64,000 nucleotides of DNA, taken from assembly GCA_963662465.1 (NCBI GenBank), contig OY759599.1:6080001-6144000 (forward strand), read 5' to 3'. Shown here one piece after another: positions 39,026-44,738 of the stretch (positions are counted from its first letter, which is position 1; every line of letters begins with the position of its first letter). The notes under the pieces were generated by a model that was given only the letters and a program-made list of their open reading frames with translations, was not told the DNA's origin and did not search any database. The translations under genes and the position numbers were made by a program. Source of the DNA: Desulfatiglandales bacterium (GTDB lineage Bacteria > Desulfobacterota > DSM-4660 > Desulfatiglandales > Desulfatiglandaceae).

Positions 39026-40098
39026 GATGAACCCCTTTCTTGAAACGGATATGACAAATGCTACCATGGGGAAAAGTCAGGGACAACTTTTATTTGCGGG
39101 GGGAGGTGGACGTTTGATAGACTATGGGCGGAGTATAAAGCCCAAAAAACCGTTTATAAAGGCAAGGGTCCAGACCAAAACCGTTATGACAACTATCTCC
39201 AAAAGCCTTTTGGTGGTAAGGAACCCCATGAGATTTTACCGCTTGATGTGGACCGGGTGCGGATGAAGATGTTGAAAGCCGGGAAAAGCCCTCAAACCGT
39301 CAAGTTGACGCTGGCGCTATTGCGGCGGCTTTCCAATTTTGGGATGAAAAAAAGGCTTTGTGATGGGCTTCCCTTCACAATCGAATTGCCACAGGTGAAC
39401 AACATCAAAACCGAGGATGTGTCTCCGGATGAACTGGACGCCCTTCTAAAAGCCATGGATGAAGACGATAACATTCAGGCTGCAAATATTATGCGGATGG
39501 TGCTTTATACCGGCATGAGACGCACAGAACTCTTTAAGCTGAAATGGACGGACATTGACGAAACAAAGGGTTTTATAACGATCAGGAACCCCAAAGGCGG
39601 GCTTGATCAGACCATCCCTTTAAATGATGCGGCAAGGAATCTATTGAAAAAGCATCCCTCCACGGGGAGTGAGTATGTGTTCCCTGGGCGCGGTGGAAAT
39701 CAACGGGTGGATATCCATCATCAAGTCAACCGTATCCGGGACTGGGCAGGGTTGCCCAAAGACTTCCGGGCGCTTCATGGATTGCGCCATGTATTCGCCT
39801 CCATGCTTGCATCTTCCGGAAAAGTTGATCTTTACACCTTGGGCGCTAACCAAAATGGAACCAGTTTTGCTACTCCAAACGGAACCAGATATTGCGCACT
39901 GGTCTTTTCCTTTTAGAAGGGTTTTCTTGTAAATTTGTTAGAGGTTGCATGAAAGAGTATATCAGATGGTATTTTAAAAATGCTGGTGAGACACGTAGCG
40001 TTCTGGTTGAAGAATCAGTGATGAGGATACCATCAATATGGTGATGGCAGAGAAGAGGGGATTAGATTTTTCGGTTAAGGGCAATGCTTATTGAGGAA

Positions 40099-40296
40099 CT
40101 ATTTGTCTATGTCATAGTCGTCCGGTAAATTCAGGAGGCCTCCCTTCGCCAATTGATCCTCAATCAAATATCCAATTTCCCCGTTTTTTTTCAGCTGTAG
40201 AATCATCCATTTGGGGAGACGAATGGTGAGCAGTTCACGTCTCAAATGTTCCGGTTTCTTTCTTCGGCCGGCGCCTACCCGTTTTCCACCTCTCAT
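40099..40296 (-). CDS. Small putative DNA-binding protein (RHH-like)
   Basis: MRGGKRVGAGR basic arm followed by LLTIRLPKWMILQL strand-helix pattern. Confidence 0.55.
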   Translation of the reverse strand: MRGGKRVGAGRRKKPEHLRRELLTIRLPKWMILQLKKNGEIGYLIEDQLAKGGLLNLPDDYDIDK

Positions 40297-40394
40297 TTCA
40301 AGCTCCAAGACAAGGTAATTTCTGATATTCGTGTAACGAGATTCAAACAGACCGGTGATATTCAGACCTCAAAACCGGCCCTTTGGCGAACATC

Positions 40395-41114
40395 TCATTT
40401 TCTGAGGGAAGGACCATCAATATGAATGTTGATGCAGCGATGGTTGAGACGATCCAGCAAGGCATCGACCATGTCCTTTGGTTCAAGCAGCGAATACCAT
40501 TGTTCAGGTTGAAGATTGGTCGTAATAATTGTGGACCGACCGGCTTCATAGCGATCTTTCATGAGTTTAAAAAAGGCGTTCATCTGCTCTTTTTTGAGGG
40601 TCAGGTATCCCAGTTCATCGAGCAGAAGCAGGTCATATCTGCAAAGGGCATTGAGGAGTTTCGGGGTGGACCGATCTGCCAAAGACGCATAGAGCTGATC
40701 CAGCAAATCCTGAACATTATAAAAACGCCCCCGGTACCCGGCAATAATGGCTTGACGAAGGATCCCCACGGCCAATCCCGTTTTGCCGACGCCGGTTTTT
40801 CCATGGAACACGATGTTTTCTCTTCGGCTGATAAAGTCAAGGCCGGACAACGTCATGATCCGGCTCTTCTGTATTCCCGGCTGAAGATCAAACGGAAAGG
40901 AGTTGAGGGTCCATTCCCATGGAAGCTTTGCAATCTGGACCCGATAGATCATGCTGCGCTCCTGCCGGAAACGTAATTCCTCAGCCAGGAGATTGTAGAT
41001 GACCTCGTGAATGGAAAAACCGTTCTTTTCAGCCGAAGCCAACTGTTCTTCGAGAGCCTTCAGCATGCCTTTAAACTTCAAATCAATGAGTAACTGTTCA
41101 ATTTTCTTTTTCAT
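40395..41114 (-). CDS. istB: IS21-family AAA+ helper ATPase IstB
   Basis: GKTGVGKT, LLLLDELGY, RYE..STIITTN, ALLDRL.H. Confidence 0.95.
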   Translation of the reverse strand: MKKKIEQLLIDLKFKGMLKALEEQLASAEKNGFSIHEVIYNLLAEELRFRQERSMIYRVQIAKLPWEWTLNSFPFDLQPGIQKSRIMTLSGLDFISRRENIVFHGKTGVGKTGLAVGILRQAIIAGYRGRFYNVQDLLDQLYASLADRSTPKLLNALCRYDLLLLDELGYLTLKKEQMNAFFKLMKDRYEAGRSTIITTNLQPEQWYSLLEPKDMVDALLDRLNHRCINIHIDGPSLRK

Positions 41115-42493
41115 AGATCAAAAAAGTCTCCCGCGATATAATCGAGAATAATGTTTTCCAGACGCGACAAATCAAAAAGTCCATATTTAAGCGCCTGTGT
41201 TATGGCTTTCAAAAAAGGTTCCCCGGGATAAGTGCGTTTCAGATGAAGCAACCGACGTAACTTGACCACACCGCGACCGTGACTTCTTTTCTTCAGTTCA
41301 GCCACATACTCATCCAGGATGGCATCCTCTCCCGTCAACAGCTGTTCTTCTTTTGAAGGGATTCGGGGATCTTTTTTTCTTCGAATGGGAACATGGTGAC
41401 CGGGCAGGGTTGTTCGGGTGTTGCGTTTATCCAGTATGCGGTCATGTTCCGCCACTTTTGTGTTTTTGTCGTAAACGATGACCTTGAGCCAATGTTTCTG
41501 TACTTCCAGGGAGTTCCCAATCAGCGCTTCAGGGACTGAATAGCGGTTGGTGTCCAAGTGCACATATCCCTGAACATCGGCTACCCTGTGTTCTGCCACA
41601 TAGACTGGCGGCTGGTATGCCGGTAAATCAATGAGATATGGCTTTTCAATGACATAGGCCTCATCCGGCGTCATCCCTAAAGCCCGTTTAAACTTTTTAT
41701 CGCTTGTATTCCGGCACCAGTCGATTGCCTGCCGGTTCAAATCCTGCCAGCTAACAAATGTTCTACCGGGAAGAAAATTGTTTTCCACAAAATGAAAAGG
41801 CCTTTCCACACGGGCACTTCGATTGGCGTCTCCTACAGCATGGGCCTCAAACCGGGTTCCATACATATCGCCGAAGTATTTCATTTCAGGCGCAATCAAT
41901 GCATCAGGCCCGGTGCCGCCGGCCACAATAACATTGGTGTTGTCAACCATGCACCGGGAACACACCCCGTCCATAAACTCGAATGCTTTTTTTAGGAAAA
42001 CCTTGCACTCAAACCGGGTAAAACAGGGGTAATACTGAATAAAAATCCTTCGGCAAAAGGCCAGGGTCAGGGACGCGCACTGGGTCGACATTTTTTTCCC
42101 ATTAATGACAACCAGATGGGGTGACGTATCATGCTGCATCTCCTGACCGGGTTTAAAATGGTATTGGCCCGCCCGTCTTTTTTTACGTTCCCGGATCTCG
42201 TACTTTCTCATAATCCAGGTCAGACTCTGATAAGGGATTTTGATCTGTTGGCGGCTTTCCAGTTCCTCGGCTACTCGCACGGCATTTCCTTTACATTCCT
42301 TGAAAAGCTCGCGGATCAACGGGACATGTTCTTCATACCGGGAGTTCCTTTGGGGTACCGCCTCTTCGTCATGATCATCTAAAACCTTCGTGACGGTATT
42401 GCGACCGGCCTTCAGGGTTTTGGCGATGTCGCGCAAACTCATGCCGGTTTTTTTCAATTCCACAATGGCATCTTTTTTGGATTGTCGGATCAT
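41111..42493 (-). CDS. istA: IS21-family DDE transposase IstA
   Basis: N-terminal HTH, PGQEMQHD, VDN, RVERPF and Mu-like C-terminal domain (NRYSVP). Confidence 0.92.
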   Translation of the reverse strand: MIRQSKKDAIVELKKTGMSLRDIAKTLKAGRNTVTKVLDDHDEEAVPQRNSRYEEHVPLIRELFKECKGNAVRVAEELESRQQIKIPYQSLTWIMRKYEIRERKKRRAGQYHFKPGQEMQHDTSPHLVVINGKKMSTQCASLTLAFCRRIFIQYYPCFTRFECKVFLKKAFEFMDGVCSRCMVDNTNVIVAGGTGPDALIAPEMKYFGDMYGTRFEAHAVGDANRSARVERPFHFVENNFLPGRTFVSWQDLNRQAIDWCRNTSDKKFKRALGMTPDEAYVIEKPYLIDLPAYQPPVYVAEHRVADVQGYVHLDTNRYSVPEALIGNSLEVQKHWLKVIVYDKNTKVAEHDRILDKRNTRTTLPGHHVPIRRKKDPRIPSKEEQLLTGEDAILDEYVAELKKRSHGRGVVKLRRLLHLKRTYPGEPFLKAITQALKYGLFDLSRLENIILDYIAGDFFDL

Positions 42494-43374
42494 AATTGGG
42501 TCGCTTTCTTGAGTTCCAGTGCTTGTTTTTCTATCTTTTTCACCCAGGTTTTGAGCGTTTCTTTCTTCAACTGATCGCTTTTTGGGTAATGGACATGCGA
42601 AACGGTTTTCACCAGACGTTTGAGAACCGCATATGCCATTTCAATATCCTTGAACCATTTGCCTTCCGGTCCATCATGAACTTCTTTGGCTTGTTTAGAC
42701 TGGGTTCTTTGTTCGAGAACTTTTATGAAAAGGGATGGATTTTCCAGCATGTGGTCTCGAACAGACCGGTTGCTTTTTTGGTAATGTGCGTAGAAACGGG
42801 CCAGTTCCCTTGTGGATAGAGGTTCTTTTTCCAGGTGGGCCAACAGTTTTTGTGCGTCTTCACCGTTGGCGCGCGCCAACGGCGCCATGACACGGCTGGC
42901 AGCCCAGGTTGAAAGTGAGCCTGCAATCACGGTTCTCAAAATATTTTCCGGCAGGGCTTCAACCAGGTCCAGCCGCCGTTTTACAAAACTCTTGTCGCGC
43001 CCTATTCGGGTTGCAATATGGGAGAGGCTGCACCCAAAACGCCGATGTAATTCCTGAAGTAAAACAGACTGCTCAATGACTTCCCATTGCCGTTCATTGG
43101 CCTTGGTTAAAAGCGAAAACATGGCATTTTGTTCGTTTTCTTTTGAGAATTGGACACATATCCGGTCCTTTCCACAAGCACAAAGCGCTCGAACACGCAG
43201 GTAGCCATCAATCAGAATCAGTTTGTCTTTTTCTTCAATAGCCAGGGCCGGAACGATCTGCCCGTAAGTTTCGATGGAATCCCTCAATCGCTTTAAAGCC
43301 TGGTGATTCATTATCCGGCAATGAGCGTAACGCAACTCCAGCAAATGAATATCAACGGTTCGGATGGATTCCAT
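42490..43374 (-). CDS. ParB/Spo0J-like protein (ParB N-terminal domain + HTH)
   Basis: SIETYGQIVP...LIDGYLRVRA (GxxRxxA box) and SLSHIATRIGRDKSFVKRRL HTH; its stop overlaps the istA start. Confidence 0.88.
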   Translation of the reverse strand: MESIRTVDIHLLELRYAHCRIMNHQALKRLRDSIETYGQIVPALAIEEKDKLILIDGYLRVRALCACGKDRICVQFSKENEQNAMFSLLTKANERQWEVIEQSVLLQELHRRFGCSLSHIATRIGRDKSFVKRRLDLVEALPENILRTVIAGSLSTWAASRVMAPLARANGEDAQKLLAHLEKEPLSTRELARFYAHYQKSNRSVRDHMLENPSLFIKVLEQRTQSKQAKEVHDGPEGKWFKDIEMAYAVLKRLVKTVSHVHYPKSDQLKKETLKTWVKKIEKQALELKKATQL

Positions 43375-43771
43375 ACCCAGTCTCCCGAAAGATTTCCTCT
43401 ATGGTTTCTCCAAGACTGACCCAATTTCCTTGCCGGATCTCCTTTACCTGTTTCACAATCACAGGACGTCTGGGAAGCGAAAGAACCTGAAACAGACGGC
43501 CATCAAACCCAATCAGATCCTTGTCCAACAAGCCATCGCGGGCATCGATATATTGATCCAAATGCACCTTTAAAATCCGGCAGATTCTGTCGTAACCATA
43601 ATAAGAGAGCCCGTTTTTGTCAGATACCAACACCAGAAAAATGTAGAGCAGCAGCTCATGATGATTCAGGCTCTCCCAAAAGCCGTTTCTCAAAAAACGA
43701 TGCTCCAGAAAGCCGAAGCTTCCATTGATGACACGCACTCTTTCGGGAAAAAGGACTCTTTTTTTGATCAT
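43352..43771 (-). CDS. Winged-helix-like hypothetical protein
   Basis: ELLLYIFLVLVSDKNGLSYY....IC..L......AR..L...LI, a pattern resembling replication-initiator-type wHTH domains. Confidence 0.7.
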   Translation of the reverse strand: MIKKRVLFPERVRVINGSFGFLEHRFLRNGFWESLNHHELLLYIFLVLVSDKNGLSYYGYDRICRILKVHLDQYIDARDGLLDKDLIGFDGRLFQVLSLPRRPVIVKQVKEIRQGNWVSLGETIEEIFRETGYGIHPNR

Positions 43772-43783
43772 TTTTTTCTCCTG

Positions 43784-44200
43784 TCATGGATATGGGGTTT
43801 TCTCAAAGCCTGTTACATCTGAAAAAACCCTCCCTGCATAAGCACGGCGAGGAAAATGGTCCACAACAACCCCGATCGACCCGCAAAAAAGACAGCTGGG
43901 TCGGTTCCCCGACCGCTTTTTGGGTTCAATATCACAGTCTTTTTGAGGTGTTGAACTATCATCACCAGGGTTCAGTCCATTTTTTTTGGATTTTTTTGTT
44001 TTTTCGTACAAACGACGGCGCTCTTTCCCTTTTTTCGAATTGCGGTATTTCCCCTGAGCTTTCCGGTGCAGCTGTCTTTGGCGTATCCTGCGACATCGTT
44101 CCCCACAATAGGCCTGGCCACGCCAACACGACCGACAGACGTGAAAAAAGCAACCACAACATCGGCATTGAACCACTCTTAAAAGGACATCTCCCATCAT
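43784..44200 (-). CDS. Cys-rich basic putative zinc-binding protein
   Basis: CRCC, CRSC.RGQAYCGERC, Arg/Lys-rich middle and CLFCG. Confidence 0.7.
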   Translation of the reverse strand: MMGDVLLRVVQCRCCGCFFHVCRSCWRGQAYCGERCRRIRQRQLHRKAQGKYRNSKKGKERRRLYEKTKKSKKNGLNPGDDSSTPQKDCDIEPKKRSGNRPSCLFCGSIGVVVDHFPRRAYAGRVFSDVTGFEKTPYP

Positions 44201-44282
44201 TCCGGCCTTGCAATTGGCCGGAAACACACTTATATAAAATTGGCGTGTGTGTGGCTTCCGGCTCTATCCGGTGGTCAAAAAA

Positions 44283-44312
44283 GAAGGCCCGAAGCGGCTA
44301 CTTCGGGCCTTC
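44283..44312. other. Perfect 12-bp stem hairpin upstream of the transposon operon
   Basis: GAAGGCCCGAAG-CGGCTA-CTTCGGGCCTTC. Confidence 0.7.
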
Positions 44313-44738
44313 ACCATCCATTCTACAAAGTAAATCGCATTTCCACTTAACCAAGCCTCTGTCTTGGAAGAAGAAAACCAAATCCAAAGAAAATAGATTT
44401 TCTAAAAATTTATTGAAAAGTAAATCTACATCAACGACTCCTTTGCCGCCACTTATGGATCCCTCATCGTTCGCTATACCTGAGGGCCGTACTCACCGGC
44501 GGTGACAGCCAATGGTTCAATTTCCATTAGCAAACTTGGTTCAGTTTTGATTAGCGTTGAAGCTTTACACACTCCAAAGGCTTCTTACTCATAAAAGCCC
44601 ATCTATGACCATGAGATACGCCCATCTAAGGGATGACGCCCTACGGGATGCTTCACAGGTGGCTGGGGATATCGTTAATGATGCCATGGTGGGGAAGAAA
44701 AAAGAAAACAAGGTTGTCAATTTGGAGGCATGGAGATA

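Follow-up and report, generated by a model that had tools for sequence, protein, structure and literature searches.

The 64,000-nt window analysed here (positions 6,080,001 to 6,144,000 of contig OY759599.1, assembly GCA_963662465.1, a Desulfatiglandales bacterium) contains a sharply bounded IS21-family element of 4,725 bp, located on the minus strand at window positions 39838-44562. Besides the transposase gene istA and the helper ATPase gene istB, it carries genes for a Cys-rich Zn-ribbon protein, a winged helix-turn-helix (wHTH) protein, a ParB-like protein and a protein of 69 amino acids (orf69). Within the ParB-like gene lies a perfect 20-bp palindrome, CCGTTGGCGCGCGCCAACGG (42863..42882), which encodes (A)PLARAN(G). 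This palindrome is a DNA site under selection of its own, a feature that is new for the ParB-like gene of an IS21 element. By analogy with ParB-parS, Noc-NBS and KorB-OB, ParB-like protein and palindrome probably form a cognate protein-site pair (rough probability 0.7). Full-text search of the literature, a scope that leaves ISfinder and TnCentral outside, retrieved no paper on ParB-like genes in IS21 elements. An earlier sequence-only reading had described the element; its strand, the 69-aa open reading frame (ORF), a hairpin in the leader and the palindrome were absent from that description.

Codon conservation was determined for 56 ParB-like genes of less than 90% mutual identity, as the rate of identical codons among same-residue pairs in each alignment column. 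The six highest of 105 usable columns are residues 165-170, those encoded by the palindrome, with codon identity of 0.74-0.96. The column mean is 0.40 (standard deviation, sd, 0.18) and the next best column reaches 0.69. At the palindrome, proline is encoded by CCG in 48/56 genes (background share of this codon elsewhere in these genes 0.39), leucine by TTG in 51/52 (0.18), the first alanine by GCG in 45/46 (0.25), arginine by CGC in 53/56 (0.21), the second alanine by GCC in 50/52 (0.39) and asparagine by AAC in 49/54 (0.51). The site is the longest perfect palindrome of its gene in 41 of the 56 cases, and its arms measure at least 8 bp in 33 of them.

Where the sequence of the site differs, paired changes usually preserve its symmetry. 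The variant found in relative L165, TGGCACGTGCCA, differs by two synonymous changes, and in L179 (TATGGCGCGCGCCATA) the encoded peptide becomes PMARAI. A distant lineage, represented by genome G206 and plasmid NC_012109, has GTTTATACGTATAAAC, encoding FIRIN, and a 4,615-bp element of the same lineage in the genome under study has GTTCATACGTATGAAC at equivalent codons, a synonymous Phe change being paired with an Ile-to-Met change. Position +/-2 falls on synonymous third bases in both arms; the main type has G:C there, and L165 and the distant lineage have A:T. Complementarity extends up to the centre bases; therefore a duplex site read by a dimer fits better than a hairpin. The palindrome always lies within the ParB-like gene and occupies the same codons in two lineages that share just 17-22% protein identity.

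The palindrome 16-mer occurs 26 times in the genome, versus 0.002 occurrences expected, and 25 of these are located in copies of the element. The one remaining occurrence, a solitary copy of the 18-bp palindrome, is outside the window at G000:C1:3732981 (G000 being the genome under study). It stands between genes in AT-rich DNA, and some 210 bp away a segment of 61 bp shares 77% identity with the end of the element; it may have been left by a relative with an internal deletion, or be an orphan site. Half-sites with at most one mismatch were matched eight times in the element, versus 2.9 (sd 1.7) in shuffled sequences, and two of the eight are the palindrome itself. No half-site forms a second dyad, and an array of palindromes is not claimed; likewise, resemblance of the palindrome to the element termini was considered and found too weak.

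The ParB-like gene (42490..43374, minus strand) overlaps the wHTH gene by 23 nt and istA by 4 nt. Its product is composed of a ParB/Srx-type N-domain, a ParB helix-turn-helix (HTH) domain and a helical C-terminal part. The HTH domain matches PF17762 (HTH_ParB) with 29.1 bits (cut-off 22.6) and the protein matches TIGR00180 with E 1.9e-11, below the cut-off of that model; PF02195 gave no match in this protein and is on record for some homologues, and some family members have a weak match to the KorB domain. The same domains, followed by three long C-terminal helices, appear in the AlphaFold2 (AF2) model (predicted local distance difference test, pLDDT, 86.8). Foldseek ranks ParB of Myxococcus, Bacillus and Caulobacter best, followed by Noc and KorB (7bnr, E 3e-10; 7nfu, E 2e-9; 8qa9, E 9e-7).

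Alignment to Myxococcus ParB places GYLRVRA opposite GERRWRA, and box I, QPR, reads H-T-R. In a 26-row alignment of ParB-like proteins G57, Y58 and R60 are invariant; conserved family features are G38-Q-I-V-P, D56-G57-Y58-x-R60, R95 and E101, together with a C-terminal GPEGKW block in which E237 and W240 are invariant. Since GERR is replaced by GYLR, neither a canonical CTP-hydrolysing clamp nor KorB-like CTP-dependent sliding can be assumed, and the premise of the sequence-only reading that the protein is a CTP-dependent clamp fails at motif level. The ParB/Srx domain stands at the very start of the protein, where the N-terminal peptide by which canonical ParB contacts ParA is absent, and no ParA-like ORF was detected among the element ORFs with Pfam and NCBIfam. 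Its recognition helix reads RDKSFVKRR, versus KSKAWVSVR in the distant lineage. Prediction of a complex between IstA and the ParB-like protein from 26-row alignments yielded scores of 0.17 and 0.24 against a mark of 0.32, which is evidence neither way.

Linkage of the ParB-like gene to istA was examined from both sides. A scan starting from IstA, restricted to one genome per species, yielded 41 loci. About five different elements account for them, including near-identical copies from metagenome-assembled genomes, a multi-copy element of NaphS2 (IstA 86% identical) and one 50%-identical element. The ParB-like gene occupies the same place at every locus with enough upstream DNA, the sole exception being a copy truncated by another IS. 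In a phylum search (400 genomes, IstA at E 1e-50), eight places were found in five other genomes: five with the ParB-like gene directly upstream, one decayed copy without it, one contig end and one in genome G284, discussed below.

The converse search, with the ParB-like protein, retrieved 984 clusters (90% identity) at E <=1e-10, and its profile retrieved 562 representatives of 50%-identity clusters at E <=1e-30. Among the 120 clusters listed, most are seen only on contigs of 1-5 kb, as fits a repeat that breaks assemblies. Of 80 metagenome loci sampled in this way, 66 extended for 300 bp or more downstream of the ParB-like gene and 70 for 500 bp or more upstream. In 65 of these 66 the next gene downstream is istA, usually at a distance of a few to about 100 nt (the genes overlap by 4 nt in our element), and the same core order is preserved down to 31% IstA identity. 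A Zn-ribbon ORF (C-x1-4-C ... [YFT]C-x2-5-C) precedes the ParB-like gene in 62/70 loci, against a background of 64 motif-bearing ORFs among 803 long ORFs of these loci, the Zn-ribbon ORFs themselves counted. The wHTH gene is present in 12/70. The ParB-like protein is 84% identical to that of the NaphS2 element.

Members of the distant lineage have IstA 28-32% identical and ParB-like protein 17-22% identical to ours, and a CHC2 zinc-ribbon (DnaG-type) gene and, in one case, a DUF3991-Toprim gene after istB. The lineage occurs in the genome under study, in G206 and on plasmid NC_012109; the plasmid record names the genes 'chromosome partitioning protein ParB', 'helix-turn-helix domain-containing protein', 'ATP-binding protein' and CHC2 zinc finger. 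Two copies of 4,615 bp are found in the genome under study (G000:C1:8094474-8099088 and near 6813480-6818100, locus L187), with the order ParB-like (298 aa), IstA (494 aa), IstB, CHC2 (164 aa) and an orf69 homologue (78% identical). The ParB-like protein of the window gave no match among 72,556 plasmid records at E 1e-10.

In a tree of 57 IstA rows, all rows accompanied by the ParB-like gene, from both lineages, form one clade (Shimodaira-Hasegawa-like approximate likelihood ratio test, SH-aLRT, 100), which also holds one row of unread context. Outside of it are six ParB-less rows: IS21, IS100, an ISSme2-like element and three local IS21-type elements. Ratios of nonsynonymous to synonymous substitution rates (dN/dS), calculated between the window element and four relatives, are 0.20-0.39 for the Zn-ribbon gene, 0.13-0.31 for wHTH, 0.19-0.28 for the ParB-like gene, 0.11-0.16 for IstA and 0.06-0.12 for IstB; for orf69 the value is 0.10, from one relative. 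All genes of the element are thus under purifying selection. The ParB-like gene, usually with the Zn-ribbon gene, defines the clade, and some members add wHTH, orf69 or both.

These results bear on the proposal of the sequence-only reading that the three genes upstream of istA are core machinery and mark a distinct, larger IS21 clade. That the extra genes belong to the element and mark such a clade is supported by the tree, by purifying selection and by the presence of ParB-like genes beside istA down to 31% IstA identity. Co-occurrence with IstA holds for the ParB-like gene and mostly for the Zn-ribbon gene and fails for wHTH; close IstA homologs mostly lacking these genes, which would have indicated random cargo, were not what we found for the ParB-like gene (65/66 loci). 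Core function is not established for any of the extra genes: wHTH is present in a minority of loci, and the Zn-ribbon gene is swapped among close relatives.

Some relatives deserve separate mention. Contig CAZQXW010000108.1 (3,690 bp; locus L049) has a complete front of Zn-ribbon, ParB-like, IstA and IstB genes, with IstA 50% identical to ours, in a bin labelled Thermoplasmatales archaeon, for which mis-binning or inter-domain transfer is possible. Metagenome contigs L132 and L133 are deletion derivatives, in which the ParB-like reading frame breaks off near residue 254 and continues straight into the last ~40 residues of IstB, with loss of istA.

How might such a pair act? A dimer of the ParB-like protein would bind the dyad via its ParB-type HTH domain, and the complex would sit inside the transcribed operon, about 370 bp upstream of istA. 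There it could lower istA-istB expression or the frequency of transposition, in cis as well as in trans on all copies, and so function as a copy-number-sensing brake. We regard such a brake as the likeliest of the roles considered, at somewhat less than even odds. In this scheme the Zn-ribbon, winged-helix and 69-aa proteins would assist in regulation and be open to exchange, and the leader hairpin would keep outside transcription from reading into the operon. Any nucleotide switch would differ from that of the canonical CTPase, because GERR is GYLR.

Several observations weigh against a ParB-like protein paired with its palindrome, or against a brake built on them. It is solely family analogy that suggests the ParB-like protein as reader of the palindrome, and among type A sequences the recognition helix shows no simple co-variation with the variants of the site. 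The perfect core of the palindrome is only 3-4 bp long in 13 of the 56 genes (PLSRAN and PLSRVN variants), owing to a mismatch at position +/-4, and two genes have no palindrome at the site. The protein lacks the catalytic Glu and one Arg of GERR. In G284, a sister IstA has a WYL regulator upstream and no ParB-like gene there, and rows of the IstA tree were largely collected via the ParB-like gene, so that ParB-less members of the clade could be missed. Finally, a simple repressor would not usually have its operator within a coding region and 1.3 kb away from the likely promoter, and an element present in about 25 copies is not obviously tightly repressed.

A bolder proposal is that ParB-like protein and palindrome are a third, obligatory component of transposition in this IS21 clade. 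A ParB-type complex would then nucleate at the centre of the element, mark it as 'self' and gate IstA-IstB via end pairing, target immunity or copy-number sensing; protein and site would co-evolve, since the site is written into the protein's own codons. We consider this doubtful. It is rather unlikely, too, that the palindrome-bound protein serves the transposition machine as an internal enhancer or architectural site for end pairing, comparable to the internal activation sequence of phage Mu, or as a self-mark that confers immunity against IstB. In favour of such a part, the ParB-like gene stays beside istA from 100% down to 31% IstA identity, and its product roughly equals IstA in conservation relative to the NaphS2 element (84% vs 86%); the GPEGKW block with its invariant E237 and W240 suggests a partner surface, and none of four interrupted copies, a small sample, was interrupted by the element itself. 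Contact of the ParB-like protein with IstA or IstB is nevertheless conjectural, the palindrome has no convincing similarity to the terminal repeats, and canonical IS21, according to the introduction of a 2025 structural paper (PMC12486865), has two key proteins, IstA and IstB, which suffice for transposition.

Another protein (the Zn-ribbon protein, IstA or a host factor) might instead read the selected palindrome, or the palindrome might work as a hairpin, either in mRNA or in single-stranded DNA. The ParB-like protein is tied to the palindrome by family analogy, its recognition helix takes several forms (KSWVKRR, KSWVSRR, LSWVSRR) to which no change of the site corresponds, and the GC-rich stem could form in RNA. 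Still, pairing is kept at +/-2, positions that a hairpin loop could not use, the site is confined to the same codons of the ParB-like gene in both lineages, and a different site goes with a different recognition helix (KSKAWVSVR vs RDKSFVKRR), which makes another reader or a hairpin improbable. Maintenance of an excised circle, with ParB-like protein and palindrome as a minimal partition or anchoring device and the small proteins aiding replication, is very improbable: although the arrangement is ParB-parS-like, the distant lineage has CHC2 and once DUF3991-Toprim genes after istB and the wHTH protein weakly matches HTH_36 and plasmid Rep initiators (E 0.05-0.1), the element contains no ParA, helicase or recognisable origin, all copies are integrated with ordinary duplications, and the ParB-like protein lacks the ParA-contacting peptide. 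The most improbable explanation is passenger cargo, extra genes with no role in the life of the element, for example host-beneficial or defence genes. IS elements with passenger genes exist in other families, and wHTH and Zn-ribbon genes do behave as exchangeable cassettes; on the other side stand the constant istA neighbour of the ParB-like gene (65/66), fixed order and orientation over deep divergence with all ParB-bearing rows in one clade, purifying selection on all genes, a selected cis site within the operon and the lack of ParB-like matches among the plasmid records at E 1e-10.

The cognate pair that we favour resembles known ParB, Noc and KorB systems (with parS, NBS and OB sites) in its ParB/Srx-type N-domain and ParB HTH domain and in a perfect palindrome of 16-20 bp as the likely site. 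As in Bacillus subtilis, where parS is found inside spo0J, the candidate site lies within the protein's own gene. It differs from these systems in the absence of a ParA partner, in its setting in a transposase operon, in the replacement of GERR by G-Y-L-R and QPR by H-T-R, in a family-specific C-terminal region and in a site sequence distinct from the parS consensus. Phage Mu, too, combines a DDE transposase with a Mu-type C-terminal domain and an AAA+ partner (MuA-MuB), together with a repressor whose operator overlaps the internal enhancer (internal activation sequence). In both, a cis site lies inside the element, about 1-2 kb from one end, and could link regulation with assembly of the transpososome; in Mu this site is read by transposase and repressor and not by a ParB-like protein, and here such a role is conjectural. 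IS1 InsA, a small zinc-finger/HTH inhibitor of transposition, is comparable to the Zn-ribbon protein: both are small DNA-binding proteins rich in Cys, and the gene of each stands at the 5' end of an IS, ahead of the transposase gene. No sequence relationship between the two was found, and the Zn-ribbon is without Pfam or NCBIfam match.

IS21 is a structural model for transposases with an AAA+ partner (Mu, Tn7, CRISPR-associated transposons) and has been described as a two-protein system. A large clade, of 562 representatives at 50% identity, adds a ParB-type protein with an apparent site of its own, and palindrome and ParB-like gene point to an unstudied layer of control on a textbook transposition machine. 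The clade offers a natural system for studying how a ParB fold works when the canonical CTP motif is absent, how a transposon can sense or limit the number of its copies and how one set of bases encodes both a DNA site and a protein motif. Should the pair turn out to be an obligatory component, this would be the first case of a DDE transposon with an integral ParB-parS-type module. Annotation under the names ParB, HTH and ATP-binding protein (one annotated record, NC_012109) hides an abundant transposon.

Both termini of the element, CTTGGGCGCTAA ... TTAGCGTTGAAG, are identical in all 25 near-complete copies in the genome, and the target-site duplication CTTTACAC is read in the sequence at 39830..39837 (left copy) and 44563..44570 (right copy). 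The terminal inverted repeat at the istB-distal end (3' in gene orientation; 39838..39892), recognised from repeats and comparison of the ends, contains two direct repeats of about 20 nt, 24 nt apart, with a GGAACCA core in each. That at the promoter-proximal end (gene-orientation 5'; 44508..44562) contains two TGAACCA-type repeats. Like the palindrome, none of these features is assigned a strand. The ends are imperfect inverted repeats alike at 37/50 positions, and their repeat motifs are putative transposase-binding motifs. The flanking integrase halves cover positions 3-144 and 149-170 of the 172 of Pfam Phage_integrase, from which we conclude that the element split a tyrosine-integrase gene; with the element removed, the joined flanks read VDLYTLQRLLTH.

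istB (40395..41114, minus strand) encodes the AAA+ helper ATPase (PF01695, E 3.5e-59; NF038214, 225 bits, cut-off 200). It overlaps istA (41111..42493, minus strand), which encodes the DDE transposase, by 4 nt (41111-41114), in one operon order. IstA, assigned by Pfam and NCBIfam, matches the solved IstA of IS5376 with E 1e-15 over residues 9-293 and has a Pfam Mu-transpos_C_2 match, and its D122, D184 and E230 are invariant across 26 relatives. With NF033546 it scores 129 bits (E 1.9e-37), below the curated cut-off of 160, and is thus a divergent member of the IS21 family; with IS21 IstA it aligns over about 57% of its length, at an identity of only about 25%.

Family membership is indicated by the IstB helper, the IstA-type DDE transposase, the order of istA followed by overlapping istB, and, as in IS21, IS100 and IS5376, long imperfect terminal repeats with two shorter direct repeats in each. 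Target duplications of 5-8 bp are also shared; those of IS21 elements range from 4 to 8 bp. Canonical IS21-family elements have two genes in about 2-2.7 kb and end with TG...CA. In contrast, our element is about twice as large (4,725 bp), has six ORFs, adds three to four co-oriented DNA-binding genes and a selected internal palindrome, and its termini read 5'-CTT...AAG-3'.

Copies were counted by DNA search and local BLAST of the window's own genome (8.16 Mb, one contig). There are 19 copies of 4,725 bp, two of 4,744 bp, four interrupted by other insertions and several fragments, all 99.4-100% identical. The 19 equal-length copies vary at 15 sites, with no stop or frameshift in any of the five frames. 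The sequence-only reading was accurate in this respect, as well as in recognising a 4,725-bp unit with an 8-bp duplication, which recurs in the genome with constant ends, and five co-oriented genes with overlaps (23, 4 and 4 nt). Both 4,744-bp copies contain a 19-bp insertion, with the first difference at window position 40307, the second base of orf69. Direct duplications flank 19 of the 25 copies (8 bp in eight, 7 bp in nine, 6 bp and 5 bp in one each); their absence at the other six is expected if copies recombined with one another.

The element is currently active. In public run X1, which may be the sample behind the genome assembly, contig depth is about 1,140 within the element versus 38 in the flanks, and one contig joins both flanks without the element, skipping window positions 39832-44563. 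The insertion is therefore recent or polymorphic. This contig skips 4,732 nt, versus 4,733 expected for the element with one duplication copy; the difference implies that the T-run of the target is longer by one T in the empty site, and this would put the integrase out of frame. Among the contigs examined, none joined the two ends of the element to each other (as in a circle or tandem), an uninformative result since contigs drop rare forms. Contigs of two RNA libraries (runs X7 and X9) span most of a close relative and were not counted as evidence of expression: contigs cannot show transcription, its starts or strand, and RNA libraries may contain DNA. The four interrupted copies (G000:C1:6062590-6067428, 1533098-1539753, 5974616-5981271 and 6833271-6839802) contain insertions of about 100 bp, 1.9 kb, 1.9 kb and 1.8 kb, respectively, each with a 9-11-nt overlap of element coordinates at the break.

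The Zn-ribbon gene (ORF 43784..44227, minus strand), recognised by its motif, probably starts at one of two ATG codons at ORF residues 10-11. Neither its product nor that of orf69 matches any Pfam or NCBIfam family, and the nearest 30 clusters of the Zn-ribbon protein in the protein Atlas are all unnamed. In relative L103 the Zn-ribbon gene has a synonymous divergence (dS) of 1.45 versus about 0.22 for the rest of the element, which argues for a cassette swap. In some elements of both lineages its place is taken by a 228-aa Cys-rich ORF (starting MQ.PYHIKV), located about 220 bp upstream of the ParB-like gene in L113 and L115 and at 7287-7973 in L098, another sign of cassette exchange at the 5' end. 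A strong terminator-like hairpin of 13 pairs followed by a T-run, recognised from the folding pattern of the sequence, lies in the 5' leader upstream of the Zn-ribbon gene (44283..44312, minus strand).

The wHTH gene (43352..43771, minus strand) encodes a winged helix with a weak HTH_36 match (E 5.5e-5). Its AF2 model is of moderate quality (pLDDT 68); with it Foldseek found nothing at E <=0.001 and, at E 0.025-0.2, just generic entries for winged helices and Rep initiators. Relative L167 was left out of the wHTH alignment for two stops in its translation. Homologues 58-63% identical, preceded by a different Cys-rich ORF, head two tyrosine-recombinase trios in the same genome; mobile elements of an unrelated kind thus share the wHTH cassette. 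In the clade the wHTH gene is optional, an accessory that can be exchanged. The trio loci are G000:C1:287141-288273 and 3489873-3493976 (L186), and three Phage_integrase matches were established at the second. Their Cys-rich ORF is not significantly similar to the Zn-ribbon protein of the element (E 0.76) or to the 228-aa Cys-rich ORF of the distant lineage (E 0.16).

Downstream of istB, orf69 (40099..40308, minus strand) encodes a protein that appears ribbon-helix-helix-like in our reading of its sequence. Several relatives keep it in this place, as does the other ParB-bearing element of this genome. A third IS21-type element, in which no ParB-like gene was detected, is located at G000:C1:5957365-5961452, with more copies near 6818591 and 7836042. 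It has a 901-aa IstA-like ORF (23% identical) and two tandem orf69 homologues between istA and istB.

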